Below, piece after piece: positions 939 to 51,013 of a stretch of 64,000 nucleotides of DNA. The notes below the pieces were generated by a model. The model was not told the DNA's origin, did not search any database, and saw nothing but the letters and a program-made list of their open reading frames with translations. The stretch is taken from positions 1 through 64,000 of IMG/VR virus record IMGVR_UViG_3300031772_000014; one strand, written 5' to 3'. Made by a program: the position numbers and the translations under genes. Position 1 is the stretch's first letter, and every line of letters starts with the position of its first letter. The DNA comes from a virus.

Positions 939-2060
939 TCAGAACTGCGACACCTGTGGAAAGCGGAGCCCTTGGTCCACCCGGTTGTTCGGGGCGCCGA
1001 GCGCGTCCTCCGCGACCGGGATGAAGTTCGCGATGAGCGAGTTCGCGTTCACCGACGAGGCGTCGGCCGAGTACAGCTCGAGCTTGCGAACCGCCGCGAC
1101 GTTGATGACCGACATCGCGATGTCTTCCCACGCCTGGAAGCTGATCGTGTTCGCGACCTTGTCGATGTAGAACTTCGTGTTGTTCAGGACGTAGAACTTC
1201 CCGAAGAACTCGGGGCGCGTGAAGATGTACACGTTGCCCGGACGAAGGATGTCGGTCTTGACCGTACGGATGTACGCCAGTCCGAGGATGGTGTTGTACT
1301 TGTAGCCGTCGACCGCGGTCTCGCTCTGGAGGCGGTCACCGAAGTCCTCGACGGTCCACTGGAGCAGGTCGTCGTAGTCCGGCTCCGTCATGAGCAGGCG
1401 CTCTGCGCGGAGGCGGTTGGTGTCGAGCAGCTTGCGGAGGTTCACGATGTCCGGGCGCTGGATGGGGCGCACGATGGCGTCGTTGGTCAGCGCGGTGCGT
1501 GCGAGCTCGCCCTTGCGGACCGAGAACTCGACCACGGTGCCGGCCAAGATGGTGCTGCGGTTGAGCGCGACGGGGGTGCCGCCGTTCGCTTCCGTCTGGA
1601 GAGCCTGGACGGCCGACTCGATGTGGGTCGTGAACTCGCGGTCCTCGATCTCCTGGATGTCCTTCACCGAGTTGTCCTCGATGATCTTCGTGATGGGCAT
1701 CTCGTAGGCGAGAAGCTCCTGCTCGGTCTTCTGGAACATCTCCGAGGAGATGGTGAAGAACGCGACCTCGGCCCTGCTGCCACGGATGAAGCGGGCCGTG
1801 GGCTGGCCGCGGAACGTGATGGCCATCGCGCGGCTCTTCGGCTCCACGTCCACGATCTTGACGAGCGTGTCGTGGTTGACGGAGCGCTGGCAGTCGGCGC
1901 GGGTGACCTGCTGCGGGGGAATCACCTTGCGGGCGAAGGAGACTTCGCGGAGGCGGTCGCGGATGTACGTACCGCCGGCCTCCGCGAGCTTCTCCTTGCC
2001 CTCGGCGCTCCCCAGCTTCTGGGTGAACATGTCGTTGAGGACTCGTGCGGGAACGCTCAT
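939..2060 (-). CDS. Major capsid protein (HK97-fold likely)
   Basis: 373 aa with an AAGGA RBS. N-terminal IRDRLREVSFARKVIPP and central IQEIEDREF segments resemble phage capsid proteins. It is last in the protease-scaffold-decoration-capsid order. Confidence 0.75.
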   Translation of the reverse strand: MSVPARVLNDMFTQKLGSAEGKEKLAEAGGTYIRDRLREVSFARKVIPPQQVTRADCQRSVNHDTLVKIVDVEPKSRAMAITFRGQPTARFIRGSRAEVAFFTISSEMFQKTEQELLAYEMPITKIIEDNSVKDIQEIEDREFTTHIESAVQALQTEANGGTPVALNRSTILAGTVVEFSVRKGELARTALTNDAIVRPIQRPDIVNLRKLLDTNRLRAERLLMTEPDYDDLLQWTVEDFGDRLQSETAVDGYKYNTILGLAYIRTVKTDILRPGNVYIFTRPEFFGKFYVLNNTKFYIDKVANTISFQAWEDIAMSVINVAAVRKLELYSADASSVNANSLIANFIPVAEDALGAPNNRVDQGLRFPQVSQF

Positions 2061-2106
2061 GGTATTTTCCTTCTGTTCGTCTGTTGGAGGGCTGGTCTGG
2101 TTGGGC

Positions 2107-2634
2107 TAACTGACGCCAGCCCTGCATCATGCGGAGCTTGCCACCATTGGCTGCGGGCAGGCGAGTGACGTACCCGACCACCGGCTGGGGATCCGCCGCG
2201 CCACCATGGCCGACGATGCCGGAGAACTTGCGACCACCGAAGGTGATCGTTCCGACCTTGAGGGGCTGCATGACCGCCGTGATGGCAGCGCCGCCGGCGC
2301 CCACGACCGCCGTGGAGTCGAAGATGCGGGTGTCGGCCTCGTACTGCCCGAGGAAGAGCACGACGGTCTTCGTGCCCGCGATGGCCTGCACGTCGTAACG
2401 TCCGCGCTCCGCGAAGAGCGGGAACGAACGCACGAGGGCCGGGTCCAGACCCACCGCCACGTTGGACGCGCGGATGAGCTGGTAGCTGGCGTTGATGGTG
2501 CACCACTCGCCATCGACGAGGGCCACCGGATTGGTCGGTTGCGCCAACGTCGGATCTGCGAGGGGGAAGTCCCGCCGGTGAACCGGGAGGATATCCGAGG
2601 TGGGCTCGAAGTTGACTTTGCTGAGAGTGGACAT
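2107..2634 (-). CDS. Putative capsid decoration/cement protein (175 aa, ends at TTA)
   Basis: AAGGAG RBS and position just upstream of the capsid gene. In-frame TTA at 2109-2107; under the standard code the ORF would run 725 nt out of frame into the capsid gene. Confidence 0.6.
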
Positions 2635-2668
2635 GAACGCTTTCTCCTTCTTACCTTGGCCGGGGGCC

Positions 2669-3025
2669 TAACGACATGATGACGGACTCGAAACCCGAGA
2701 CGTCGCCACCGTGATTCTTGCCCTCGTCGGAAGACGGGGACGCGAGTTTGTTCCACATGTCTGGACCGACCATGTCGACCGCCGCTCGTACGTTCTCGAG
2801 CTGCCCGGCATGTGCCTTCTTCTCGAGGGTTTCGATCAGTGACTCGGTCGGCTCATCGCTCAGCCCTTTGCGCTGCATCTCGGATGCGATTTTCTCGCAG
2901 TCCTGACGCAGCTCGAGGCGAGCTACTTTCTCTCGGAGCTCGTCCCGCTCTGCGGTGACGGCCCGAAGCTGTACGGCAGCTTCCTTGGCCAAACCTGCGA
3001 CCTTCGCCTGGTTGAGCTTCTCCAT
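2669..3025 (-). CDS. Putative scaffold-like coiled-coil head protein (ends at TTA; standard TAA at 2651)
   Basis: Starts MEKLNQAK after GGAGG. Coiled-coil with K-x-A motifs; ends FESVIMS-TTA. Confidence 0.55.
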
Positions 3026-3027
3026 GA

Positions 3028-4536
3028 TCAGTTGACCTCCTCGACGAGCTTCTGGAACAGGGCCCGAGCTGCTGCTGTTTTCGTGTTGCCGGCGCTCGCG
3101 ACCTTCGGACCAGCCTCCGACGTGTGGCTGAAGGCAACCTGGAGGGTGTTGTCGTGGGCGGCCGAGTCCATGGGCTCCGACAACCACTGCTTCATGTCCG
3201 CCTTGCGGTTCGCGTACGCCTGGCCGCGGGTGAAGTTGATGGCGGACTCGTTCGAGCCGATGAGGCTCGTGGGTCCCTTCGGGGCTCCACCGACCGGCTC
3301 ACCACCGTCCTGCCCGGCCTCGGTGGCCTTCGGGGCCTCCGCGGGACCGGCAGAGATGTGCGCGGGGTTGATGGCGTCTTCCGCGAGCTTGATCCCGAGA
3401 CGGGACAGGTTGGCCATGTACAGGGCAGAAGCGCTGTGGTCGCTTGCGGTGACCATCTTGCCGCCACCACCACCCGAGAAGCTGTCCTTGAGCTTGGCCC
3501 CGAGTCCACCGAAGAAGCCCTTGGCTTTCTCGGCTGCTCCGCTGACGGCGCCGCGAACGGCGTTGCTGGCACCCGTGAGGGCCTCGTGTCCCTTCAACGC
3601 CGCGTTCCCGACCGCACCGCGCATCTTCGATGCCTCGAGACCCGCGTGAGCATGCTCGAGCATCCCTGGAACCTTGACGGGACCACGCGAGACGACCGGC
3701 GCCGCCGCGTGGGTCGCGTTGTGCATGAGCTCCCCGATGCCCTTGGGGGGTAGCTTCACTCTGCTGAGAAGAGACCCTGCCCCGCCGACCCCTCCAACCC
3801 GACCGGCCATGCCAAGAACATTCGCCAGCTTGAGCAGGCGCTTGAGGTTGGCTGCCGCGACCTTCTCGGGAGTGTGACCACCAGCACCAGGGGGCGAATG
3901 GTCGTTCGTCTCGAGGGCGTTCTTCGGAGCAGTGGGGGCGCCCTTCTCGGTGGGCGTGTGCATCGGGACGATGTTCTTCGGCGTCGCCTGGCCCTTGTGG
4001 TCGGGCAACGGGGTGCTCGCCGTGGCCTGCGTGACCTCGAGGTGTCCGGGACCGGCACCGGGACCGTTCGTCGTTCCCCCTTCGGCTTCCTTCCCGAGCT
4101 CATACCCGATGTACTCCAGGGCATCGGCAATCTTCATGACGTAGTCGGTCGAGACCGAAGACGTCTTCTCCTTCGAGCACTTCTCGTCATCGTGGTCGGA
4201 CTGCTTTGCTGCTTCAGCCGCGAGCTTCGCACGAGAGAGGGACCCCGCTTGCGCAGCCTTCAGCATCTCCTGAAGCGACATGTGTGTAGAGGCGTTCGTC
4301 ATGGTCGATCCATACTTCGGTTGGAGAGCCTTCGCTTCGGTAGCTCCTGCATCAGGAGCTGGGGGTGCAACTGAGTTCACCCTGGAATAGTTCGTACGTG
4401 GGGAGGTCCCGGTGGGACCCTTCTTCCCTGCGGCGGGTTGAGGCGTTACCTGGACTTCCGGTATCGGCATCGAACCCGCGGGAGGAGGCGTGACCGGAAG
4501 CGTATCGCCACCCGCGAGCTTCATCTTCCTGGTCAC
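3028..4536 (-). CDS. K-x-A motif, Gly/Ala/Pro-rich head/internal virion protein
   Basis: 502 aa, tightly packed in the head operon, with about 10 K-x-A motifs. Confidence 0.55.
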   Translation of the reverse strand: MTRKMKLAGGDTLPVTPPPAGSMPIPEVQVTPQPAAGKKGPTGTSPRTNYSRVNSVAPPAPDAGATEAKALQPKYGSTMTNASTHMSLQEMLKAAQAGSLSRAKLAAEAAKQSDHDDEKCSKEKTSSVSTDYVMKIADALEYIGYELGKEAEGGTTNGPGAGPGHLEVTQATASTPLPDHKGQATPKNIVPMHTPTEKGAPTAPKNALETNDHSPPGAGGHTPEKVAAANLKRLLKLANVLGMAGRVGGVGGAGSLLSRVKLPPKGIGELMHNATHAAAPVVSRGPVKVPGMLEHAHAGLEASKMRGAVGNAALKGHEALTGASNAVRGAVSGAAEKAKGFFGGLGAKLKDSFSGGGGGKMVTASDHSASALYMANLSRLGIKLAEDAINPAHISAGPAEAPKATEAGQDGGEPVGGAPKGPTSLIGSNESAINFTRGQAYANRKADMKQWLSEPMDSAAHDNTLQVAFSHTSEAGPKVASAGNTKTAAARALFQKLVEEVN

Positions 4537-4551
4537 GCGTCCTCACCTTCA

Positions 4552-5433
4552 TCACCAGTTGATCGGGTAGCCGACCATCTCGAGCAGCTCGAGCGCACGG
4601 ATGTGCATCCCCTGCTCGAAGTTCTCCGCCGAAGCGACCTTCGACTCCCCATCCGCCGGGAGGCCGAGAGTGAAGAGTGCATCGAGACGCTCGCCTGCCT
4701 CCTCGGGGTTGAAGCCAGCCTCGGCGGCCTTGTAGAGCGCGAGCTCCGCGGCCACCTCGTCCTGCGCGGACGCTTCCTTCTTGCCAGAAGTCGCCTTGTG
4801 CGCCGCCGCTGCGCCGGCCGCCGTCGCCGCCGTACCGGCCGCGACACCAGCTCCGATGCGCTTCAGCTTCTCGGACTTCGCCTGACGGAGACCCTCCATG
4901 CGGGCACCGTGCAGCGCCGGGTTCCCCTTGAGGGACTCGGAGATCATCTCATGCGCGTGCTGGCGTCGGCCAGTGACGAGATCCTTGACGCGGCTTCCGA
5001 CAGCCTTGCCGGCATCGCCCACGGCCTTGGCGGCATCGCCCGCCCTGCCGGCCGTCTTCTCGGCGATTTCGCGGCTCTCCTGCGCGAAGGAGTGCGCCAT
5101 GATGCGACCCATGAGGTCGGCCTCGGCGAACTTCTCCTGAGCCTCCTTGGTCTGCATGAACTCGGCATGCGCCGCCGCGACCTTCTCGTCCTTCTTCTCC
5201 GGCTCGTCCTTACCACCCTTGTGGCCGTGCTTGTGGCCGTGCTCACCACCGGCCGCCACCTTCGACTGCCAGGTGTTGTAGAGATCGGCAACCTCTTCGT
5301 CGCTGTACGAGTTGAGGTCGACGCCGTTCTCGGCTGCGAGCTTGGCGAACATGCCAGCCGAAGCCAGCTTCTCCTGTTCGTCGGAGGGGTTTGCAGTGCC
5401 GTACGCCTGGGCGAGGAAGTCGTTCATGGACAT
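4552..5433 (-). CDS. K-x-A motif head/internal virion protein
   Basis: 293 aa with a GGAG RBS. Contains EKLAS, AKLAA, SKVAA, EKVAA, EKTAG, KKEAS and SKVAS, plus a Gly/Ala-rich hydrophobic segment. Confidence 0.6.
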   Translation of the reverse strand: MSMNDFLAQAYGTANPSDEQEKLASAGMFAKLAAENGVDLNSYSDEEVADLYNTWQSKVAAGGEHGHKHGHKGGKDEPEKKDEKVAAAHAEFMQTKEAQEKFAEADLMGRIMAHSFAQESREIAEKTAGRAGDAAKAVGDAGKAVGSRVKDLVTGRRQHAHEMISESLKGNPALHGARMEGLRQAKSEKLKRIGAGVAAGTAATAAGAAAAHKATSGKKEASAQDEVAAELALYKAAEAGFNPEEAGERLDALFTLGLPADGESKVASAENFEQGMHIRALELLEMVGYPINW

Positions 5434-5447
5434 GGTTGAGAGCTCCG

Positions 5448-7160
5448 TCAGTGGGTCGTTGTTCTGAACGTGTTCTTCGAGGGGAAGCCCCTCTCCACGC
5501 CGGCGATTGCCGGAAGGCTGCCAACCTCATCTTGGAAGGCCAGCTTGAAGTACGCAGCAGACAGGGGAGTGAATAGCTTACCTGCGGGTGCCGATGCAAC
5601 CTTGGCCAGCTCCGAGTCACGAAGACCGGACCGGGACAACATGCTCTGGGACTCGGGGATCAAGTTCATCACGTTCTGTCGGTAGCCGTTGTACGCAGCA
5701 CCTATCTTACGCAGCACTTCCGGGGAAAGAGAAGAGGAAGTCTTTGACTTATCTTTGGACCCCTTCTCCGGGGCGTCCCTCCCGAGCATAATGATGACCC
5801 GTTTTTCGATGGCCGGGCCGAAGCCAGAACGGGCACCAAACAGCGGCATGAGGAGCTTCGCCAAGGCTGAATCGAAGCCTCCCTGGGCCATCGGGACATC
5901 AGCGCACTCGTCCACTTTCGGGAACGTCATCCCGACATCGTCAAGGTGGTCGGCCATCGGCCGGGCGCCTGAGTTGACCAAGATGACTCGTTGAAACTCT
6001 TGTGGCCGAAGGACCATCCCCATCCCGGTAACTGTCGAAAGGGCATCCCCCAGAGGACGAGAGCCCAACAGGTTCAGGATGTCTTCGGGGATGGAAGGCT
6101 CTTGCTTCGTCAGGAGTGGCACGGCCTTCGAGGCGAACTGGGACGGGAAGACATCCTTGGTGATCTCCCCTTCCTTGTCCTTCGCATCCTTGGACAAAGC
6201 CAACTTGAAGTTCTGTACCTGTGCGGTCTTCTCCGTGGACTCGCCGTCCTCGTAAACCTCTTCCCCGGCCTCCGCGCCAGACAGGAAGAAGTAGGACTTC
6301 GAGGCAATCTTCATCATCACCTTGGCGGTCTTGTCGGCGCCGATGAAGACGAAGCTGATGTCGAAGAACTTCGGGTAGTCGTTGTACACGAACACCTTCC
6401 GGCCATCCGGAAGGATCTTGTTCATGCTCTTGAGCGCGTGCTCGCAGTAGTCGGCACGGGTGATACTCAACCCACGGATGCCCTTGCCACCGTTGCTCTT
6501 GAGGGCCTTGTGCATGGCCAGCACGGCTTCACCTGGATGCCTGTGCTTTCCCTTCTCGAACGAACCCTGGGCCTTCTTGTAGAGATCCCAGTCAAGGCAG
6601 ATCGAGCAGGTGTCGAACGGGACTTTGCAACCCATCGAGACATCTGGGAACCCGCCAATCTTCAGCTTGTCCCAGACGCCCTGCCCGCCGTGCGAGATGC
6701 ACTTGTCCTTATCGACACGGGTGACGAGCTCCACCCGTTTCATCTTGTCGTTCCAGGCCGCGAGCTCGACTTCCCCGAACGCCTTCGCGGAGTCCTTGTT
6801 GCGATGGTGCGCGTACGGGTGGGCCTCGTAGAAGGTCGGGAACCCGTACGGCCAGGTCTTCGCCTTGATGCGGTCGATGACCGGGTTGCCGGTCCAGTCG
6901 TCCGGGCGGTGGATGAGGCTGGCCTCGGTGAAGTAGTCCCCGTTGATGTTCGACCCCCACCACTCCCCGGCCCCCATGGCGTTCATGAGCACGTACTGGG
7001 AGTCGCTCTGTGGACGCAGGGTCGAGATGTACTTCGCAACCTCCGGAAGAAGATCCGGTGCCGCCGTCTTCTCCAGGAAGGAATCAGTCTCCTTCGTGAA
7101 GAGCGGGATGGCGACCGGCCCGTGCGCCGCCATCGAGGGGAAGAACGCCAGCTTGATCAT
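5448..7160 (-). CDS. Putative prohead (capsid maturation) protease with Zn-finger insert
   Basis: Motifs NGDYF, HHRNKD, DVSMGCK..CSIC..CEH and FFDISFVFIGAD resemble phage prohead serine proteases. It lies upstream of the scaffold and capsid genes. Confidence 0.65.
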   Translation of the reverse strand: MIKLAFFPSMAAHGPVAIPLFTKETDSFLEKTAAPDLLPEVAKYISTLRPQSDSQYVLMNAMGAGEWWGSNINGDYFTEASLIHRPDDWTGNPVIDRIKAKTWPYGFPTFYEAHPYAHHRNKDSAKAFGEVELAAWNDKMKRVELVTRVDKDKCISHGGQGVWDKLKIGGFPDVSMGCKVPFDTCSICLDWDLYKKAQGSFEKGKHRHPGEAVLAMHKALKSNGGKGIRGLSITRADYCEHALKSMNKILPDGRKVFVYNDYPKFFDISFVFIGADKTAKVMMKIASKSYFFLSGAEAGEEVYEDGESTEKTAQVQNFKLALSKDAKDKEGEITKDVFPSQFASKAVPLLTKQEPSIPEDILNLLGSRPLGDALSTVTGMGMVLRPQEFQRVILVNSGARPMADHLDDVGMTFPKVDECADVPMAQGGFDSALAKLLMPLFGARSGFGPAIEKRVIIMLGRDAPEKGSKDKSKTSSSLSPEVLRKIGAAYNGYRQNVMNLIPESQSMLSRSGLRDSELAKVASAPAGKLFTPLSAAYFKLAFQDEVGSLPAIAGVERGFPSKNTFRTTTH

Positions 7161-9287: not shown

Positions 9288-10007
9288 ATGAATGGCGCCA
9301 AACAGAAGCGTGAGACCGGAGAGCTCGTAACCCAAACGGAGGCCGCGAAGCTACTGGGCGTGCCTCCGAAAGCCGTCCTTCGCTTGATTGAAAGGGGAAT
9401 CCTGGAGCCTGTAGCCCAGCGAGGGACCAAGAGGTGGTTCGACCTTCGAGACGTTTCCGCCGCTTCAGATGCCCTCGAGCAGAAGCTCAGCTTCGCAGGA
9501 ATCCTCGAGACGAGCGTACGTGCTCACACGGCCGCTACCAGGGTCGAACGCAAGATCAACGCCCTCATGGAGTTCTTCGGGATGGAGACACTTCAGCCAC
9601 AACCCACGAAGCCACAGGTCGAGGCTCACTTCGCCCAAGGTGACCGACTGGCCCTTGGGAGCGAGTCGCTATCCCCAGCGGACATGATGCGCTGGGCGAA
9701 GATCATCATGCGGATCGACAGCTCTTACCTGACCCTCGTGGGGCACTACCTCAAGAAGAAGGAACCATGGGTGGTCTTCCTTCTGGGAACCGACCGAGCA
9801 CTCAGGGCGGTCCCCATCGAGCAGATGCAGGACGACCCCGACACCGTGATGGCCGTCTCAATGCTCTCGTACGCGAGAAAGTGCCTGGTGGGTGAGGCGT
9901 ACATCTACTGCCGGTTCACGCTCGGAAGGCAGAAGGCCGACATCAAGTTCCCCGACAACGCTCGAGGAGAGATGAACGACATCATCGGGGCCCTTCTTCG
10001 TTCGTAA
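9288..10007 (+). CDS. HTH (MerR/excisionase-like) DNA-binding protein
   Basis: N-terminal VTQTEAAKLLGVPPKAVLRLIERGILEP..RWF winged-HTH pattern; AAGGA RBS. Confidence 0.65.
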   Translation: MNGAKQKRETGELVTQTEAAKLLGVPPKAVLRLIERGILEPVAQRGTKRWFDLRDVSAASDALEQKLSFAGILETSVRAHTAATRVERKINALMEFFGMETLQPQPTKPQVEAHFAQGDRLALGSESLSPADMMRWAKIIMRIDSSYLTLVGHYLKKKEPWVVFLLGTDRALRAVPIEQMQDDPDTVMAVSMLSYARKCLVGEAYIYCRFTLGRQKADIKFPDNARGEMNDIIGALLRS

Positions 10008-16381: not shown

Positions 16382-17698
16382 TAAGGCCATGACAGCCGGA
16401 TTGCCGGTCGTGATTGAACCAACCGCCGGGGTCGCAATCGTGATGACGCCCGTGAAAGGCGAACCGTTCAAGAGCCCAGATACCTGCGCGACCGGGATCA
16501 CGATGGCCACGCTGTCGCCCATACGGGCCACGGGCTGCGTGCCTGACCCAAGACGAATCTGATCTCCAGATACCTCCGTGAGCGCTTGCCCGCCCACGAC
16601 CATGCTGGTCTTGGCCTTCAACTCTGCGTTGTCGAACGCCAAGGAGAGGCTGCCGGCACCCTTGAGCGAGAGACCCTTCTTGAAGTCGATCACGCACCCG
16701 CCCTCGGACCTGATGAAGACCCCGCCGGCCCGGTCCATGATGAAGTGCATGGTCATCTGCTTGGCCACCGCGGGGTTCGCCAGGTCTCCGGTACCGGCCT
16801 TGAAGCCACCTGGCGCGATGACGACCTCCATGACGACCGGGGCCGTGGTCCCGATACCGGCGTTCTGGAGGTCGCTCGTCGAGTCACCGAAGAACGTGCT
16901 CCCTACCTTGGGTGGCTCCGTGACGGGGTTGAGGACCTTGCCCTTCGCGATGCGGATGTCGCAGAACTGATCGTTGGCGAAGAGCCGATAGGTCTCCATG
17001 TGCTGTGCGGCCGGGTTGTCGATGGATGGTCCTTCCTGGATCCCCCACTTGATGGCCCCGCCCACGTTCTGGTGCTCGTAGTCCCCGGACACGTCGAAGA
17101 TCTTGTTCGCGAGCGGGATGTAGATGCGCTGCGCCAAGCTCGAGCCGCCGATCTGAAGAACGCCGCCTCGATGAAGGATGACGAAGTTCCCGTCACGTCC
17201 CTTCATGAACACGTCGCCCGGCTTTATCTCCGGCCTACCGCCATCGAAGCGGGCGTCGTTATGCGGGAACTCCACCTTGCCGCTGCGGGAGCGTGTGCCC
17301 TGCGGGGCGTCGGTACCGGTCAGGTCACCCTGGTCCACGAGCTGATTGCTCTTGATGGACGTCGTGATGGCATCGTCAGGATTCCCGAGCGGCTTGGACG
17401 TGTTGCCAGCCTGCTGCATCGGCATGATGAACGAGTTCACGAACGGCGGAGACGAATCGCTGGGGATGCACACGAAGCACACCGCACCGACGTCAGGCAT
17501 CACGAAGATGCCCTCACCGCTGTTGTAGTGCATGTACGGCGAGCTGACCTGGATGTCGTAGTAGTAGTGCCGGTCGAACTGCGAGATGCAGTCCACGGTG
17601 TAGTTCACCAGGTTCACGTTCATGACCCGGCACTGGACCATCTTCGACGGTCGCTGCCCTTCCGACCGGCCACCGCCACCATCATACCTACGCGTCAT
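16382..17698 (-). CDS. Baseplate hub/spike protein (gp5/VgrG-like; ends at TTA)
   Basis: N-terminal OB-fold-like 'MPDVGAVCFV', beta-rich C-terminal part, and PAAR-like end PVARMGDSV...GSITTGNPAVMA followed by TTA. Confidence 0.65.
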
Positions 17699-20600
17699 AA
17701 GTACACGTGGGAGGGCACGACGTTTTCGCCCTTGGCGTTGCGAGCAAGCCGAGGAAGACCGAACTCAGCCCCGTAGACCACGCCAGGAATCGGATGGGCT
17801 CCGTGGATGCTGGAAACCATCCCCGTCGCGGCAGCTTCCGAGATGGTCGTACGGAGACGTTGATGCTGAAGGCGGGCCATCCAATCATCATGCAGAGACA
17901 AGGGGAGCATGTCGACTCCCATGAGCACTGGGCTGTGCAGGATCTGACCCTTGCCACCGGTCTTCAAGTCTCGGTTCATCTGGTTGATCACAGACGTCGG
18001 ATAGAACTCTCCCCGCATCAAGTGCGGGTGGTCGCCAGGATCTTCCACCTTCGTGATGTTCGACATCGCACGAACCATGACCTCTATGGCGCGTCGACGA
18101 ACACCTTCAGCCTTGTAGAGATCGTGGATCTCATCGGCCAGATGGTTCTGTACGTGGTCCATGCTCTTGGTCGCCTTGTAGAGATCGTGCGGGTTCACGA
18201 CCGTACGAAGCGGATCTGACAAGGAGCGCCCTGCCTCCACGTGCATCCCCACGGTCGGTGGCGTCCACAGGGCCTGACCCTTCGGCGGAATGGCTCCTGG
18301 AAGATTGATGTGAAGGTCCAGACCATTGTCGTCCTTGCCGACGAAGTGCGATGTGCCGCCGACCCAGATGCGCGTACCCGTGGACTCCTTGTCGATCTTG
18401 TCGATCTTCCCAGAGGCCATCGAGACCGTGGCGGAGTTCGGGATCTTCTTGTGCAGCTTCGTGAGCTGCTCGAAGCGAGCGAAGGAGTTCACGGCCTTTG
18501 AGCCGCCGCCAGACTCAGCAACGCCTCCCGTGTGGAAGAGCTTCAGGGTGAGCTGCACCGCCCGCTCCCCAACCGCGTGCGCGGCCTGGATGCCCACGTT
18601 GGTACCGAACTGGTGCTCCTCCCCATCGACAGAGGGCCCCATGCACTTCTGGCAGATCCCTTTCGGGCTGTCGCACTTCAGCGGACTTCGCACCAGCACC
18701 TTGGCGTTCTTGTCCACCGCACGCATCTGACCCACCAGGTCCGGGGTGACCAGCGTCCCCGCGGGGATGTGGAGCCCACCGGACCTGAAGTCTGCTGCGA
18801 GGTGCCGGTCATGCACGTCATGCTCGGAGAGCGCCATCGAGATGCCCTTCGAGGTCCCGCAGTCGTGCTTGTCGATCATGAGGTTCATCGAGGTGTTCAT
18901 CAAGAGTTTCGACATCGCGCCGGGCTCCTGGACCTCCTGGACCTTCATGACGGTTCCTCGACGAGCTCCGTGGAGCTGCGTCCAGTACTCCCCTAGGTCG
19001 AGACCTTCCGCGTAGCTGTTCTTGATCGGAACCGGGATGTTCTGGCTCTTGGAGTCCTTCATGATGAGCGGGGACATCACCATCTGCTTGTACTGGTCCC
19101 AGCTCGGCTTGGTCCCGGCGGCGGCCATCATGAACAAGTTCGAGGGGTTCTTCTTCGCCTCCTCCTTGTGCTGCGTCTGCATGTCCTCGCCGGCCTTGAG
19201 CCAGACGTTCACGGACTGCCGGTCCTTATCCTTCTCGTTGATGGTCTTGCTGCCGTTGATGGCATCCACCTTCGTCTGCGCGGCCTTGAGGATGGGGTCC
19301 CTGACCGAACGGATGGGATCGAAGTCCTTCAGGCTGAGCGAGTGCGTCCCGATGGAGAGGTGCTTGTCGGGGATGAGGTTCGTCTTGATGATCCCGTACG
19401 AGGCGTCGTACCCCAAGTCCTTCACGTCGTTGATGACTCGACCGAAGTCATGCCGGTGATCTTTGCCCAGGGTATCGAGCATGGTCACCAACCCCTTCTT
19501 GTCCACCTGGAAGTCCAAGTCATGCAGAATCTTGTTCTGCATCGGCTTCGGGAGGATGTTCGCCAAGAGCACGCGACCAGCCGTCGTCTCCTTGCCATTC
19601 AGGTGCACGATGTCCGTGTAGTCAATCTTGCCCGTGTGCAGGGCAGAAACGACCGATGCGTGGTCGGCGAACTTCTTGTCCGTCTTCTTGTCCGTCCGCG
19701 AAAGCTTGTAGAGACCCAGAGCAGACTCCAACGTGGGGCGGTACATGACCTCCCCGGAGGACTCGCTGAAGATGTTCTTCGTCGGGTACATCCTCTCGGC
19801 TTCCTTCACGGCCTCGTGGCTGATGGGGACGTAGACCGACATCGCGTCTCCGTCGAAGTCAGCGTTGAAACCACCCGTCACGAGAGGGTGGATCTTGATG
19901 GCGCTGCCTTCGACCGTCTTCGCCTTGAACGCCTGGACGGAGTACTTGTGCAGCGCAGGGTCACGCTTCAAGATGACGGGGCGCTCGCTCATGACCTGGT
20001 CGAGAGCTTTCCAGACCATCGGGTCCTTCTTCCCACGGTGCACCTCAGACAGCTTCTCCTGGGCATCGAGGGTGTGCGCGGCCGTGCCTTGCTGCACAAG
20101 CTGTCGAACCACGAACGGACGAAAGAGCGTGAGAGCGGCTTCCCTGGGAAGACCAACCTCGTCGAGCCCAAGGTTCGGCTCTGGGACGATGGTGGAGCGC
20201 ATGGTCATGTCCTGCTTGCGCTGCGCCAACGTCTTCTGGAAGTAGCCTTCCTTCGGCTGAGAGCCGGCAATAACCTCGAGGATGCCCTTCTCCTTCTTGT
20301 CCTTGTTCACGCTCCCGATGCCCATGATGGCTTTCACGCCGTCGTAGTAGGAGGTGCGCTGCTCTACCTTCCCCGCATCCGTGAGGTTCTTGGAGAGGAT
20401 GGGATCCTTGAGCTTGGTGTTGATCTGCGCGAACTTCATGTAGAGGCCGTTGATGTCCTCGTACTTGATGGCTCCCTGCTCCATCTGATTGATGGGACGG
20501 GTGTTCGGCGGCATCACGGGCAGGTTGTGGAGGATGTACGCCTCAGAGGGCTTCATCCCCAAGTCCTTGAGGACCGTGAGGTACTTCACTTTCTTGAGCG

Positions 20601-23600
20601 CTCGGTCCACGTTCCCAGGTGACGTGGACCCCAACTCGAGCTTCGCTTTCGCTAGGTCCTTGGTCACGTCGATCCTGTCGAGCAGCGTCTTGATACCGGG
20701 GCCTCCACGGACACCTGCCACGCTGGTAGTGATCTCTCCCGTCCCAGGCACGACACCCTTGGTGCCGTCGATGATGGAGTTGAACTGCTTCTGGGTGATG
20801 CCCGTGAGCTTCTTGATCGGCTCCTGGAAGAGCGGGTTCGGAAGCGCTTCCGCGAGCGCGATGTGGGACCACTTAGTCCCACCGTGACCGCCGGTCACCT
20901 TGTCATCGAACAAGCCACCAGGCATCGGCTCGTACTCACCGCTCTTGTTCGTCTTCGCCCGGACGGGTGAGTTACCAGCCGTCTTCAACTCACCCGCGGA
21001 CATGTTGAGGATGTGCTTGTCCGTCAAAGGGGAGACGTGGAACTCATGCCCCTTCTTCTCGATGTTGATGCCAGTACCTTGGAGCATCTGGGTGAAGCGG
21101 TGGAAAGCGAACGTCGGACGAGGCGGCGGCGGCGGCATCCCGTTCTGAATCGCGTTCCAGATGTCGTTGTGCTGGTTTCCTTGCGTCCATCGCTTCGCTT
21201 CGTTCGTCTGGATGTCGTTGCCCTCGGACTTCCAGGTCTGCATCTCTCGGATGTTCGCCTTCGCGCCGTGCGCGAGCATCGAGTAGAGCCCGAGAGCTCC
21301 CAGGCTCTGACCGCCGGCGTGACCGCCACCGGTAGGCTGGAGGAAGGAGTCGTACCCCTCCGCCTCGGTCAGCTTCGGCAAGCCCATCCCGGAACGTACC
21401 GAGAGCTTCTTGTCCACCTGGTGGACCAACTTCATCATGTACTGCTTGCCCACCAGAGCTTCCCCGATGGGGAGTTTCGTCATGGGATCGATCAGGTGCT
21501 CGGTGTCGCTGAGCCCGTGCTGCTTCAACTCACCCTTGACCTTCTCGAGGTAGTCCCCCGTGGTCGAGTCGAAGTTATGGACGAGGTACGGCTTGCCGGT
21601 CTTCTCGGCAATCTTGGACACAGCCGTCTCGAGCACCTGCCCGATGTTCATGCGTCCAGGGACGCCAGCAGGGTTCAGCAAAACCTCGGTGGGCTTCCCG
21701 TCTGCCGTGTGCGGCATCTCCTTGTTTGGAAGCACCAAGGTCACGATGCCCTTGTTGCCGTAGCGCCCGGCAATCTTGTCACCGACCTGCATGGGCTCGA
21801 TGGTGCGGACATGGACGGAGATGTTCTCTCCGGTCTTGTGGACCCCCACCACCTCACCCTTGAAGTCAGACGTCCACCGGACGGACTTGTCCGTGTGCTG
21901 GTTGATCATGCTCTTCCGAAGAGCCGCCACACCCGTCCGGTCCTTGAGCTGGTACGGCATCGTCGCGAGGATGAGCGGGTCACCAGACTTGACCGTGGCC
22001 CCAATCTTCACGACCCCGTGCTCATCAACGTTCTTGTACTGCTCCGCCGTGAAGGCTGTGAGGTGTTGCTGCCGGAACTTCTCCGGAGAGAACACCATCC
22101 CCTCCTTCTTCTCGACGTCATGCTTGTGCAAGTGCTCGCTGGAGAGCATCTGCGCGGCTGTCTCGCTGATGACCACCCCGTCCTCGAAGTTGTAACCCTT
22201 GAAGGGGATGTACGCGACGCGGAGGTTGGTACCCAGCGCCAACGCCCCGTTCTTCGAGTAGTTCGTGTCCGCGACGATCTGCCCAGCCTTCACCTTGTCC
22301 CCAACCTTCACGAGCGGGGTCGAGTTCATCGAGCTCTTGGCGTCGTTCAACGGGTAGTGATGGTAGAGCTGAATCTCGTGCTCGCCGTCCTTGCCCTTGA
22401 TCGTGATGCCGTCCTTCGTGATCCCTGAGACGACGCCATCCGTCCTCGAGAAGTGCGCGGTCTGCTTCCCCACCAGATGCTCGAAGGAGTTGATCCCCGT
22501 GGTGGTGGGAGGCGTGGCCACCTGGACGAGCGGTGCTTGGCGACCGATGAGGGAAATCGCCTGCTCCATGTGACGGCTGCCCATGCTCGCGCGACCACCA
22601 GAGCTGTTGCCCAGGAACGGGATGAGGTTCGAGGTGACGTTGAATAGCTGTGACGAGTGCCGGAGCACGTAGTCGGCTTCGACGAACTTCTTCTCTTCGA
22701 TCTTGTTCCCCTGCCCGACGATCTTGATCATGGGACCAGTCGGCACGGGCTTTCCGTCCTTCCAGGTCACCTGGTCCGGCAGGGCGACGTTCGAGGCGAT
22801 GAACTGGTGCGGGCTGATGTCCTCCGTCTTCCCGGTGCGGATGTTGAAGACCGGAATCTTCGCCTCGTTGCCGACCTTCTTCAAACCAATCGGCAGGCGC
22901 AGGGTCACGCCCGTCTTTTCACCCTCGGGGGTGTTGATGGGATCCAAGAAGCCGATGTGCGAGACGTTGATCATCTTCGCGTCAGCCGTCACCTGCCGGT
23001 CGCTCTTGATACCGCCCGGTCCCATGATGGTCGTCTGCATCGCCGCAGACACCATCTCGAGAGGATTGATCTGCTTGGCCGGGTTCGACAGGGCACTCTT
23101 CAAGAACAGGGTGCGGACGGGCTCGTTGAAGATGTCCGCTTTGATGACATCTCGAACCCCCGTCGCCTTGGGGTTGTTGAGCTGCCGCTGCATCTTCATC
23201 TGGATGACCTTGGAGGACACCCGCATCTGATCCTGGATGAAGTCCCCTGTGGAGCGCAGGGTCTTGAACGTCAGGGAGTCCCGGTCGTCCTCTGGGGCAC
23301 CACCGTGAAGGGCCAGCAACTTGTTGGACGCCCGGTGAAGAGCATCTCCGGTGACGTGCTCGAAAGCCTTACCCAGCGTGACCTGGGTCACGTCCGGGTT
23401 GATCTTCGACTCACCCATGACTTTGATGAGGTGGTCCTCCGCCGCTTCCTTGGAGGGAGCCGGGAGCTTGGTGGTGGTCTTGTAGAACTGCTCGACCGCA
23501 CCATCCACCCGCTTGCCCTTCTTGTTGGCCTCGAAGATCTCCTTGCCCCACGACTTCTCCAGAGCCTCGTCGCTGACACCCAACGTCTTCATCAGGGGGT

Positions 23601-24093
23601 AGAGGGGGATCTTGGCCTTCTTGTAGTCCGCGACGAAGACCTTCTTCTCCGGGTCGAAGACAACGTCGAAGGCAGAACGTCCAACGACGTTGAACCGGGA
23701 CTCGAGCTCTCCGTTCGCTCGACGCCTCGTGTAGACGCCAGGCTTGAGCTGCCACTGGTTGTCCACCTGGTACTCCTGCCCGTCCAGGATGTAGGAGTAC
23801 CGGCGGGTCATCTTCGGAAGGTCGGCCAGACGAACCTTCTTCTTGTCAAGGGTCTTGCCAGTCTCGTTGTCCTTCAACGAGAGCATCCCATGGATGGGAA
23901 CGGTCCAGCTCTTGCCGTTGATCTTGGCCTCGTGCTGCGACTTGATGTCGTCCGGGTGAAGCTTGTCGTCGATCAAGACCTCGTCGAGATGCAGCGTCGT
24001 GGTCCTACCTTTGAAGGGGAACGAGGACTTCAACCCTTCCACGGTCTTGTCCCGAAGGTGGTCGAACGCATCTTGAGGATTCAGGTAGGCCAT
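17698..24093 (-). CDS. Single-chain beta-beta' fused multisubunit DNA-directed RNA polymerase
   Basis: Beta motifs TPEG, GYNFEDG, GDKIAGRYGNKG, NPAGVPGRMNIGQ and YMMKLVH. Beta' motifs RDPALH, catalytic FNADFDGDAM, bridge helix HGARRG and trigger loop GERAVQLTLKLFHTGG. Ends TAC-TTA-TGA. Confidence 0.93.
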
Positions 24094-24156
24094 CGGTAGG
24101 AACCTCTTGGCACGGTACAGCACCGGCGAGTAGCCGAGCAAGAAGACGTGAAGATA

Positions 24157-32631: not shown

Positions 32632-33587
32632 CAGGAGATGTTGTCCGCGGTGCTCTTGTCACGAGCCAGCTTGCCGAGGATCTTCCGCTGGTCCACCGGC
32701 ATCGACTTGTAGATGCCCACGGGGTCCTTCTGGAACTCCTCCGCCACCTCTTCGTTGAAGACCTTCTTCACCGATGAGATGCCCACACGGGCAAGGAAGA
32801 CCAGGTCGCTCTCGGCCACCTGCATGTTCCCGATGACCTCGGTGTACTCCGCCGTCTTCGACATCGCGAAGACCGTCGTCCACGGATCCGGGACATCCCC
32901 GTCGTAGTGGGAGTCGAGACCGGCCGTCTTGTCGAACTCATGCACGAGCTCGACGAAGATCTCCGGGTCCACGTGACCGGCCTGGCTCGCCACCTTGTCC
33001 AGGAGGACCTTGAGCCCGGCCTCGTCATCCTGGACGAGCAGGGAACGCCGAGCGTCCATGCAGACCTTGATACGCTCCGCCGAGGCATACTTCTCCGAGC
33101 CGTACTCGAGCGCGGCGTCAGGAACCTCCACGCCGATCTTGCTGGCTTCCTTCACCAGGTTCTTCGCGAACTCGTGGCGGTCCTCGGGGGAGAACATCTT
33201 CCAGTAGTCCGAGAAGTAGGCGCTCGCCATCTTGACCTGGGCGTAGTTCCCGAGCGGATACCTTCCTCTCAGGGCCGTCACGGACGCCTCCTTCTTCTCG
33301 ATCTTCGAGACCGGGTCCTTGTCCGAGACGTCCACGTGGGGCTTCATGACCTTCATCTGCGGAAGAGCTTCCATGTTCTTGCCTGGGATGAACGAGCGGT
33401 AGGGCGGACCTTCCTCGGGTCCGAAGTAGCTGCGGTCAGGCTGCCCGTTGGGCACGAGGTGGCCCATCGACGCGCCGGTCTTCTTGATCACGGCCTTGGT
33501 GGGTTCGACCTTGGGGTCAGCGGGAGGAGCTGCGGGCATGGTCTTGGTGTACGACAGATCGGCTTGCTTTTGCATGGTGTTCCTCAC
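32631..33587 (-). CDS. K-x-A motif virion protein
   Basis: Contains QKQAD, KKEAS, VKMAS, VKEAS, DKVAS, DKTAG and SKTAE. Confidence 0.6.
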   Translation of the reverse strand: MRNTMQKQADLSYTKTMPAAPPADPKVEPTKAVIKKTGASMGHLVPNGQPDRSYFGPEEGPPYRSFIPGKNMEALPQMKVMKPHVDVSDKDPVSKIEKKEASVTALRGRYPLGNYAQVKMASAYFSDYWKMFSPEDRHEFAKNLVKEASKIGVEVPDAALEYGSEKYASAERIKVCMDARRSLLVQDDEAGLKVLLDKVASQAGHVDPEIFVELVHEFDKTAGLDSHYDGDVPDPWTTVFAMSKTAEYTEVIGNMQVAESDLVFLARVGISSVKKVFNEEVAEEFQKDPVGIYKSMPVDQRKILGKLARDKSTADNIS

Positions 33588-34117
33588 AGCGCATTCCCGA
33601 AGCCGCGCCCAGCTTCCTGTGCGTTCACGCCCTTGAGGTTACCGCCGATCTCACTCGCGGCACCCGCGACCCCTAGAGCGGTCATCCCGGCCCCCAGGGC
33701 CTTTCCAGGGTTTCTGCGAATCATGCCGGGGATCTTGGCCGCGAAGCTTCCGATGCCGGCCACCTTCTTGAGCTCCTTGGGGTGGTCGAGCTTGTACCAG
33801 TCGCAGGCCACGAGCAGGTTGGCCGCCGCGACCTTCTGAGCTTCCTCGGGGAGGCGGTCCATGGTCTGGAGGAAGTAGTCGATGGACATCCGGGTGTTCC
33901 CGACGTCCGTGCAGGCGTACTTCCGAAGAACCACGTCTCCGTCGCGCATCACGAGGGCGAAGAGGTCATCTGGAAGGCTGCTGCGTTCCTCCCCGCTCAG
34001 CATGTGAGCGTTCTTCACCATCGAGGGGACTTCCGCCTTGGTCGGGTAGACCTGGCGAAAGACTTCACCTTCCTGGTCATCGTACACGTCGAGAAGTAGA
34101 CCGCTCAGCTTTTCCAT
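33584..34117 (-). CDS. K-x-A motif virion protein
   Basis: MEKLSG... after AGGAG; QKVAA and KKVAG followed by a Gly-rich segment. Confidence 0.6.
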   Translation of the reverse strand: MEKLSGLLLDVYDDQEGEVFRQVYPTKAEVPSMVKNAHMLSGEERSSLPDDLFALVMRDGDVVLRKYACTDVGNTRMSIDYFLQTMDRLPEEAQKVAAANLLVACDWYKLDHPKELKKVAGIGSFAAKIPGMIRRNPGKALGAGMTALGVAGAASEIGGNLKGVNAQEAGRGFGNAL

Positions 34118-34176
34118 GAAGCTCCTTTTACCAGCATCCGACCATCGGACGTATCCGCAAGAATAGCCCTTTGCTT

Positions 34177-34184
34177 GGGATAAG
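34177..34184 (+). promoter_or_regulatory. Candidate phage promoter motif GGGATAAG
   Basis: Same 8-mer at 39105. Both begin 47 nt before the ATG of the first gene of a plus-strand unit. Confidence 0.45.
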
Positions 34185-34223
34185 AGAACCGCAGCGAAGT
34201 TCACGCCCTGCCTAGGAGGTAAA

Positions 34224-34865
34224 ATGACGAACATGCCCGAGTGTTTCGGGAAGTACTGGGATGAGTCGGAAGTCGTATGTAGCGGGGGTTATGACCCGTC
34301 CTACGTGGCCTTGAACGGAAGCAAGAACAGGGAGCGGTGCCCTGGGTTCAACACCTGCCGGACCCGCACGTCGCTCGTGAAGGCCAACGAGCAGTTGAAG
34401 CAGCAGCAGGTCATACCGCCAAGCCAGCTCTTCCGAGGACAAGCTCAACCTGCGCAACAAGCCCCGGCGGCATGGAGACCTCCGACGCCCGTAGCACCAC
34501 CGGCACCGGCTCCAACGGTACCGACCGCCCCGCTGACGTGGGCGCAGCACCAGCAGTGGCAGCAGGCCCAGCAAGCGCAGCAGGCGCAGATGCAGCAGTG
34601 GCAGCAACAGCAGTGGCAGCAGATGCAGATGCAGCAGCAGATGCCTCCTTGGCTTCAGTACCCGCAGCAGTTCCAAGCGCAGGTGCAGCAGCAGCCGTTG
34701 CAGATGATGCCCGTCTCGTACGACATGCCGTCGTATCTCACCGTCACGGAAGACCGAAACCCTGGGACGTTCTGGACCAACCTCCTCCACGAGCTGCTTC
34801 GAGGAATGGGCAAAGCTGCCGGGCATAGCCTGGCGTCGTTCTTCGACCACGTGAAGTTCAGGTAA
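34224..34865 (+). CDS. Cys-cluster + Gln/Pro-rich low-complexity protein
   Basis: AGGAGG RBS; four N-terminal Cys (CFGKYW...C...C...C) and a long Q-rich tract. Confidence 0.7.
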   Translation: MTNMPECFGKYWDESEVVCSGGYDPSYVALNGSKNRERCPGFNTCRTRTSLVKANEQLKQQQVIPPSQLFRGQAQPAQQAPAAWRPPTPVAPPAPAPTVPTAPLTWAQHQQWQQAQQAQQAQMQQWQQQQWQQMQMQQQMPPWLQYPQQFQAQVQQQPLQMMPVSYDMPSYLTVTEDRNPGTFWTNLLHELLRGMGKAAGHSLASFFDHVKFR

Positions 34866-49884: not shown

Positions 49885-50549
49885 ACGACCCATTCGCCAA
49901 GAAGCCCCACGGGGTAAGGCAGCAGGTTGCTTCCGGTGGTCTCAGCATCGGCAAGAGCGTCGGCATCGCGAACTCGAAGCTCGAAGAGATCGTGATGAAG
50001 TTCCGGACGCTCGGCGGTCCCAATGGGATCGAGGCCGACATGAAGACGAAGGGGCCGGCTGAGTTCTCGAAGCCGAGCTCGGCCCCGATGGAGATCACCC
50101 CGGAGATGCTCTCCACCACCAACCCGGACGAGCTCAGCCGAGCGCTCGCTGAGCAGAACGCCTGGCTGAACTACTACTCGCCCATGATGGCAACCGTGGA
50201 GTCCGGGCTCGCAGAGAGCGAGAACATCATCACGCTGGTCGAGGCGCAGATCCGCAAGGACATGCTCGAGATCAACAAGACCACGAACAAGGGGGAGAAG
50301 TTCTCGAAAGAAGAGATCGACGCGGAGGTACTCACGAACCCGACCTACCAGGACTGCCTTCTGGAGGTTCAGAAGATGAAGCAGTACCGGTTTCAGATCG
50401 ACGGGTACATCAACATCGCGAACAGGAACGTCCGCACGGTCTCGAGGCAAATCTCCTTGCGAGGGCAGGAGTTGGACGGGAGCAACCGGGAGGCCAACGT
50501 CGCGAAAGCGGGAGGCGGGGGTCGTCGCTACGGCCCACTGCGCGGCTAA
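49881..50549 (+). CDS. Coiled-coil protein, possibly UvsY-like recombination mediator
   Basis: Helical, ending ..TVSRQISLR; located in the recombination module. Confidence 0.45.
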   Translation: MNDPFAKKPHGVRQQVASGGLSIGKSVGIANSKLEEIVMKFRTLGGPNGIEADMKTKGPAEFSKPSSAPMEITPEMLSTTNPDELSRALAEQNAWLNYYSPMMATVESGLAESENIITLVEAQIRKDMLEINKTTNKGEKFSKEEIDAEVLTNPTYQDCLLEVQKMKQYRFQIDGYINIANRNVRTVSRQISLRGQELDGSNREANVAKAGGGGRRYGPLRG

Positions 50550-51013
50550 TGATTCGCATCGACCTCGTGGGCCTTCCGCCGTCGTCCAACAACGCCTACG
50601 TGGAACTGCCACCTATCGTGAGGGGAAAGAAAGTCATCCCCCGCGGTAGGCGGCTCTCGGCGGAAGGTGAGAAGTACAAGCGGGAGACCATCACGCACAT
50701 CGTGAGGAACTACCCGAATGAGCTCTCGCAGGTAAAGCCCGACGTTGGGTTGTTCCTGTACGTGCGCTTCTTCTTCGAGGCGCTCTACAACAAGGGGTGG
50801 CCAAAAACAGCGGAAACACGGTACAAGAGGATTGACGTTACGAACCGGGTCAAGCTCCTCGAGGACTGCGTGAAAGATGCCTGCGGCATCGATGACTCGC
50901 AGAACGAGTTCGTTCTCCTCGAGAAGCGCCAAGGCCCGGACGCGACGGTTGTATTCATCTGGAACCTAGACAAGGAGGTGCCCCCTGGACTTGACGAGCT
51001 CTCACGACTCTTA
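50549..51013 (+). CDS. RusA-like Holliday junction resolvase (ends at TTA; standard TAA at 51028)
   Basis: LPPSSNNAY, DVTNRVKLLED and GIDDS. Confidence 0.78.

Follow-up and report, generated by a model that had tools for sequence, protein, structure and literature searches.

TTA as a probable fourth stop signal in genes of an uncultured phage clade

The major capsid protein gene of an uncultured phage from a sediment metagenome is preceded by a gene that ends in TTA instead of TAA, TAG or TGA. The DNA analyzed, hereafter the window, comprises the first 64 kb of the 75,150-bp IMG/VR virus contig IMGVR_UViG_3300031772_000014 (62% GC, 41% complete according to CheckV). The in-frame TTA, hereafter site 1, follows 175 codons and is one of several found at gene ends in the clade of phages to which the contig belongs. 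A probability of about 85% is assigned to the reading that in this clade UUA ends translation and does not encode leucine, beside UAA, UAG and UGA, the TTA at site 1 being the gene end. Judging from sequence comparison, TTA is most likely a fourth stop signal in these phage genes, a function for which published reports were found only from mitochondria and plastids.

The clade was sampled as about 186 kb of partly overlapping DNA, consisting of the 75-kb window contig, G006 and L002 (41%, 50% and 9% complete, respectively). G006 is a 94-kb contig that was reached by a search with a fused open reading frame (ORF) of 1118 amino acids (aa) and encodes an RNA polymerase 85% identical to that of the window. 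L002 is a 17-kb contig from a different metagenome, with a copy of the 175-aa protein 80% identical to that of the window. The sister phage G001, outside the clade, is represented by a genome of 171 kb (91% complete). From 171-kb relatives that are 91–92% complete, the genome size of the clade is inferred to be roughly 175 kb.

The TTA codon ahead of the capsid gene

The order of the genes on the minus strand is a scaffold-like gene (3025-2672), the 175-codon gene (2634-2110) and the major capsid protein gene (2060-939). The minus strand reads ATG ATG CAG GGC TGG CGT CAG TTA GCC CAA, the TTA occupying 2109-2107. A preliminary description of the window had claimed that the upstream gene lacks a standard stop before the capsid ATG, and the sequence reads so: with the standard code, the ORF extends to 432 aa (1336..2634, minus strand), meets no TAA, TAG or TGA until 1336 and overlaps the capsid gene out of frame. 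The 257 off-frame residues thereby appended had been described as rich in Arg, His and Pro. They contain 21% Arg, 11% His and 15% Pro, compared with 6, 1 and 7% in the first 175 residues, a composition commonly obtained when GC-rich coding DNA is translated out of frame. The same description had noticed a TAG in the +1 frame (T-TAG), in phase with the capsid gene; the distance between this TAG (2108-2106) and the capsid ATG is 48 nt, so that the two are indeed in the same frame.

A length of about 175 aa had been anticipated for the homologues, in agreement with what was found. The 175-aa part has 645 homologues, and most of the 120 that are listed have 174–182 aa. The 12 homologues in the alignment all terminate with GWR-x (residue 175), just before the TTA. 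At the DNA level, the codon of the site-1 TTA is TAA, TAG or TGA in 25 of 25 related loci outside the clade (TAA in G001). Chance does not explain a TTA placed precisely at the codon that is a stop in all relatives outside the clade. A metagenome scan with the 175-aa protein recovered seven relatives, all seven with standard stops, and no new TTA carrier at site 1; comparison of the site-1 region with the phage collection by blastn gave no match. A search for longer homologues retrieved only P0271, a 564-aa fusion with the capsid protein that results from a 1-nt frameshift and is not a TTA case. The C-terminus of P0271 is itself frameshifted, whereas the C-terminal GWRQ of the window protein is intact.

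An erroneous 1-nt insertion, which the preliminary description had envisaged as a trivial cause of the missing stop, is contradicted by an independent assembly. A Logan contig assembled from the probable source run matches the window letter for letter over 1851-5662 (depth 15), and site 1 carries no listed variant or indel. L002 also reads CAG TTA GCC, with a different spacer after the TTA. As the independent contig agrees and the TTA recurs in a relative sampled in another metagenome, an assembly slip at site 1 is discounted. Contigs of run X1, which is probably the source sample, support the TTAs at 2109, 2671, 10007, 16384 and 17700, and contigs of other runs cover 2671 (X3) and 17700 (X2). 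A hairpin around the site-1 TTA did not reach significance (z -1.3) and was not preserved in L002, and no promoter or terminator of note was found near site 1.

Public protein sets contain the traces of similar gene ends. P0001, a match to L002, and P0002, representing a third variant, continue as GWRQ-L-A past site 1. Like P0122-P0125 and P0127, they consist of the homologous part and a leucine, followed by translated spacer, off-frame residues or a false fusion. The 432-aa ORF and the similar long database ORFs of relatives are, from these alignments, regarded as read-through annotation artefacts. The comparisons identify the TTA at 2109-2107 as the real end of the 175-aa head protein gene, the 432-aa reading being an artefact of the standard code, and would settle the size of the head protein at 18.6 kDa (computed mass), not 47.6 kDa.

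The label of decoration protein given in the preliminary description was kept in part. A decoration or cement identity is a lead provided by the position of the gene beside the capsid gene and by language-model features (score 0.97) that resemble those of the phage cement families PF23968, PF22758, PF09956 and PF23982, families that sit on 10–15% of the members of the language-model cluster. A family assignment to sustain the label was not obtained, as the 175-aa protein had no match in PHROG, and neither the protein nor 25 homologues had a match in Pfam with E up to 5. The AlphaFold model, with a mean predicted local distance difference test score (pLDDT) of 42, is too poor to indicate a fold. 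The neighboring capsid protein is 79% identical to that of G001 and 94% to that of L002.

TTA at gene ends and in gene bodies

When genes of the window contig, G006 and L002 are called with four stops (TAA, TAG, TGA and TTA), their roughly 49,900 codons include 0 sense TTA. G001 has 14 in 43,895 codons. At the rate of G001, about 16 would be expected in the clade, and the Poisson probability of finding none is about 1e-7. A scan of frame periodicity found no internal TTA in the clade; the cases that look internal have a following in-frame start codon or lie antisense. At gene ends, roughly 30 in-frame TTAs are present in the three contigs. Every in-frame TTA of the credible genes of the window is a gene end (2109, 2671, 10007, 16384, 17700, 51011, 55112, 57456 and 58141). 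G006 has 17 end-like in-frame TTAs, with five sites common to the window. The share of TTA among stops is 13–16%, with 8 such ends among the 56 genes called in the window contig and 15 among the 91 of G006. The 5′-proximal in-frame TTAs of the ORFs 33584..34234 and 51221..51910 were rejected, since they precede the real starts or belong to the wrong frame.

The TTAs exchange with standard stops. In nine genes, the TTA of one phage aligns codon for codon with a standard stop in another, namely those of the 175-aa protein, the terminase, the spike-like protein, the RNA polymerase, the scaffold-like protein, the 183-aa and 502-aa head-module proteins, the second tail-fibre-like protein, and one gene of G006. 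The 183-aa gene ends with TTA in L002 and TAA in the window, the 502-aa gene with TTA in L002 and TGA in the window, and one gene has TTA in G006, TAA in the window and TGA in G001. The RNA polymerase genes terminate after ..PSHVY with TTA in the window, TAG in G001 and TGA in G006. The TTA of the scaffold-like gene aligns without gap with a TGA in G001 and with a TTA in L005.

The base following the stop was also recorded in the window. It is G in four, C in three, T in one and A in none of the TTA ends; the corresponding numbers are 7, 5, 1 and 0 for TAA. After TGA, A occurs 6 times, T 7, C 8 and G 8. The likeness between TTA and TAA points to an origin of TTA stops from TAA or to a shared context.

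In the sister phages G001 and G002, TTA has its usual meaning. The 14 TTAs of G001 are internal, and since those that can be aligned match L, I, F or Y in relatives, G001 reads TTA as leucine. G002 has an internal TTA within its capsid gene. In a tree of capsid proteins, the window and L002 (support 100/99) are sister to the L005/L027/L032 lineage (94/96), which has TAG TAG at site 1 and TTA at the scaffold stop and elsewhere. The phages with TTA as leucine fall outside the TTA-stop clade. From this tree, a single origin of TTA-stop use is likely.

Table 1. Coordinates of the head-module features at site 1 and of the other TTA gene ends in the window.
Feature	Position	Strand	Remarks
175-codon head-module gene (possible cement/decoration protein)	2110..2634	-	ATG 2634 to CAG 2112-2110
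In-frame TTA in stop position, codon 176	2107..2109	-	Sequence read; standard stop in 25/25 loci outside the clade
46-nt spacer with capsid ribosome-binding site AAGGA at 2072-2068	2061..2106	-	Differs in L002; TTA and ribosome-binding site kept
Major capsid protein gene, 373 aa, ATG 2060-2058	939..2060	-	PHROG phrog_2522 major head protein, E 2e-14
TTA end of scaffold-like gene 3025-2672	2669..2671	-	Standard TAA 5 codons later; TTA kept in L002, later codons change non-synonymously
TTA end of large terminase gene 11912-10008	10005..10007	-	PF05876; after ..PLWQG, TAA in G001 and TGA in L002
TTA end of 438-aa spike-like gene	16382..16384	-	Next ATG 2 nt downstream; G001 ..GNNKVLA-TGA at aligned codon; TTA kept in G006
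TTA end of fused beta-beta' RNA polymerase gene 24141-17701	17698..17700	-	TGA directly after; PF00562, PF00623, PF04998
TTA end of RusA-like gene 50549-51010	51011..51013	+	PF05866; TTA kept in G006
TTA end of tail-fibre-like gene 2, 57443-55113, 777 aa	55110..55112	-	Next ATG 9 nt downstream, in frame
TTA end of 224-aa gene 58128-57457	57454..57456	-	Next ATG 10 nt downstream; periodicity ends at TTA; TTA kept in G006
TTA end of tail-fibre-like gene 1, 60331-58142, 730 aa	58139..58141	-	Next ATG 10 nt downstream

At many of the TTA sites, a start codon, often with a ribosome-binding site, lies within 2–10 nt after the TTA (Table 1). The third-position GC periodicity of the frame that holds the TTA is lost immediately past this codon, except at 55112, where the next gene is in frame. 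The gene downstream of the spike-like gene is conserved and in another frame, and read-through past the TTA of the 224-aa gene would give residues rich in Arg, Gly and Pro. The next in-frame standard stop is 0 to 340 codons away, and the TAA that lies four codons past the TTA of the RusA-like gene is CAA in G006. Because of these distances and of the loss of this back-up TAA, the TTA ends do not rely on back-up stops.

The end of the second tail-fibre-like gene is delineated by database proteins. P0126 (784 aa) stops exactly at ..VP, and P0160 (353 aa) begins at the following Met. Five proteins have VP-L-G and then continue into the next gene in frame or into off-frame residues (the latter in three). 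The junction has TTA in the DNA of G006 and L040, the DNA behind P0122 being checked through L040. The two tail-fibre-like proteins are paralogues over residues 2–596, with 29% identity. Together with the 224-aa gene and a 337-aa gene, they form a minus-strand tail cassette (54087-60331), in the order fibre-like 730 aa, 224 aa, fibre-like 777 aa and 337 aa; its three internal junctions are all TTA-GG with an ATG 9–10 nt after.

Other observations concern the neighborhoods of these ends. The triplet 10005-10007 serves two convergent genes, being the TTA of the terminase gene on the minus strand and the TAA stop of the plus-strand gene 9288-10007, as TAA and TTA are reverse complements. At 32873-32879 of G006, the ends of two convergent genes interlock, both being TTA and separated by a few bases. 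The RNA polymerase gene (17701-24141, minus strand) encodes one polypeptide of 2,147 aa with beta (Rpb2 domains 3 and 6) and beta' (Rpb1 domains 1, 2 and 5) modules. The fusion is conserved in G001 (55% identity) and G006 (85%), and such a phage-encoded fused beta-beta' RNA polymerase seems unusual. A small plus-strand ORF (50991-51341), missed by simple gene calling, overlaps the end of the RusA-like gene. It encodes a LTELYQVCRRAGL...REKLIALL motif, which looks like a SAP/HeH-type DNA-binding helix pair, and then a Cys-rich stretch. The gene after the RusA region starts at 51338, after AAGGAG.

How translation could end at UUA

The most likely model, by analogy, is the release-factor route proposed for organelles. 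In the infected cell, the leucine transfer RNA (tRNA-Leu) that reads UUA would be missing or inactive, and a release factor 2 (RF2) of bacterial type, changed in the codon-binding region, would accept U at the second position. The altered RF2 would be supplied by the host, which is preferred, or by the unsampled part of the phage genome. That UUA is a true fourth stop in this full sense, with an altered release factor in a bacterial host lineage devoid of UUA-reading tRNA, is given even odds. Efficient, stop-like termination at TTA is favored in view of its use in genes of probably abundant head proteins, where back-up stops are lacking and TTA and standard stops replace one another freely.

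Several points weigh against the termination of translation at UUA as it is proposed here. The proposal is founded on DNA and on the comparison of sequences. No release-factor domain, tRNA, transfer-messenger RNA (tmRNA) or Rfam RNA was found in the about 186 kb of clade DNA. A metagenome-assembled genome (MAG), G007 (labelled Deltaproteobacteria, Myxococcota), holds the 31.7-kb clade contig L032 and has normal motifs in release factor 1 (RF1; PVT) and RF2 (SPF), with TTA inside its own genes. A search for the RF2 pattern [A/G]PF in 401 genomes of the phylum of G007, run without a positive control, gave no match.

The contig L032 was probably mis-binned in G007; otherwise, the termination mechanism would not come from the code of the host. 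The MAG labels of the relatives are inconsistent, with six phyla, one archaeon being among them. No tRNA gene was found in the window contig, G001 or G006, and no RF-1 domain in the window contig, G001-G003, G005 or G006. The Pfam analysis of ten window proteins (six without counterpart in G001 and four outside the gene call) matched only DUF6744 and DUF2201. Because the sampled clade DNA contains no tRNA, tmRNA, Rfam RNA or RF-1 domain, the reader of UUA would have to be sought outside it.

An unassigned, or hungry, UUA is the first alternative. With no usable decoder, the ribosome would stall at UUA and the peptide would be freed without specific recognition of the codon, so that TTA would not be a true stop. 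The tRNA-Leu(UAA) could have been lost, be withheld developmentally as with bldA of Streptomyces, or be destroyed by the phage, and release could proceed by drop-off of the peptidyl-tRNA followed by Pth, by ArfB-type rescue or by slow action of a near-cognate release factor. This scheme would be in line with a sampled phage DNA devoid of release factor and with the ordinary RF1 and RF2 motifs of G007. It also has a precedent in Streptomyces adpA and phiHau3: the release of a functional upstream product at the undecoded UUA has been proposed for adpA, and in the phiHau3 terminase gene the hungry UUA drives bypassing, standing at the head of a 10-nt coding gap after which the same protein is completed (PMC10732093). 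The likeness comprises the GC-rich setting, a UUA that is a special signal other than leucine, and the involvement of a terminase. In the present clade, however, the homologous proteins stop at the TTA and the following gene is started separately, and a Streptomyces host is not indicated. A bypass of the phiHau3 type was rejected at site 1, where the homologues end at residue 175 and are followed by a variable spacer, a ribosome-binding site and a separate capsid gene. In extracts of Micrococcus luteus, unassigned codons reportedly stall translation and the peptide is not released, and rescue by tmRNA would tag the product for degradation; both argue against release at a merely hungry UUA. Furthermore, TTA ends presumably highly expressed genes, such as the scaffold and capsid-adjacent genes, with no nearby back-up stops, and it makes up 13–16% of the stops, swapping freely with TAA, TGA and TAG among close relatives in the manner of an equivalent stop. 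A hungry UUA is considered unlikely, and recognition of UUA by a release factor is preferred.

Repair of the messenger RNA is very unlikely. UUA could be edited from U to A, or the message could be cleaved after the first U and completed by addition of A, as incomplete mitochondrial stops are completed by cleavage and A-addition. Such a process would account for the fact that no translation factor is seen, and TTA is one base away from TAA and has the same +4 context. To our knowledge, neither this editing nor stop completion has been described in bacteria or phages. As many TTAs lie 2–10 nt before the next start, cleavage would cut polycistronic messages, and the purge of sense TTA from gene bodies would be left unexplained.

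A +1 shift is extremely unlikely as a general mechanism. The ribosome would pause at the rare TTA, slip by one base and terminate at the overlapping TAG. Within the preliminary description, the T-TAG arrangement holds for site 1; four other window sites are also TTA-G, with TAG in the +1 frame, and TTA would be a slow codon in a genome with 62% GC. It does not extend to the clade: since at about half of the TTA ends a C or T follows, which leaves the +1 frame without a stop (the terminase, spike-like and RusA-like genes of the window, the 183-aa gene of L002 and ten sites of G006), a shift onto T-TAG cannot be the common process. The codons that precede the window TTAs (CAG, TCG, GGG, GCC, TAC, CTC, CCG, CCG and ACG) do not permit re-pairing in +1, and there is no upstream Shine-Dalgarno sequence at a fixed spacing as in prfB. 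As the base after TTA is like that after TAA, the G would reflect the stop context or the ribosome-binding site of the next gene. Human mitochondrial CO1 and ND6, which end in AGA/AGG, were first explained by a -1 shift onto UAG. The later explanation is the release factor mtRF1 (PMC12574857). The phage TTA is similarly a sense codon at a gene end, with a standard stop one base off in the T-TAG of site 1, but it differs in that about half of the sites lack such an overlapping stop.

That nothing special is present, but a sequencing or assembly error, a decaying gene or a real 432-aa protein, is barely credible, for although the contig is a metagenome assembly and the relative P0271 has a real frameshift-type artefact, the independent assembly of depth 15 agrees, the TTA is conserved in L002, P0001 and P0002, GWRQ is intact, the extension is off-frame over a conserved capsid gene, and the same pattern recurs at about 30 sites on three contigs.

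Comparison with other altered codes and significance

UUA is a stop in labyrinthulean (Thraustochytrium) mitochondria (NCBI table 23) and in peDinoflagellate plastids, and UUA/UUG are stops in the mitochondria of Marsupiomonadales and Pseudoscourfieldia (PMC12574857; PMC6821328). In organelles, UUA as a stop has been tied to the replacement of the invariant Ser204 of RF2 by Ala, Gly or Cys (PMC12574857). As in the phage clade, UUA has disappeared there from sense positions and is placed where homologues have standard stops. Organelles use bacterial-type RF1 and RF2, so that the mechanism based on Ser204 of RF2 could in principle carry over. Organelle genomes are tiny, whereas the present case is a large double-stranded DNA phage with 62% GC, translated by a bacterial cell and using TTA as a minority stop.

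The code of crAss-like, Lak and other phages reportedly differs in another way, TAG or TGA being read as an amino acid, as Ivanova 2014, Borges 2022 and Peters 2022 are said to have described. The present clade resembles these recoded phages in that its code differs from that of sister phages and that its genes are called wrongly by standard software; in both, late or structural genes may be linked to the change. The direction of the change is opposite, from stop to sense there and from sense to stop here, and the DNA sampled here is without a suppressor tRNA or release factor. In full-text literature searches, UUA or TTA as a stop was reported only for organelles (mitochondria and plastids). 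The bacterial and phage code changes known to us or found are from stop to sense or from one amino acid to a different one.

On the favored reading, some bacterial translation system must terminate at UUA. Standard gene callers systematically mis-annotate the phages of this clade. Work on recoding and biocontainment could take an interest in the clade as a case in which a fourth stop codon occurs in nature. If UUA is a true stop by means of an altered host factor, the clade would be the visible trace of the first sense-to-stop code in free-living cells.

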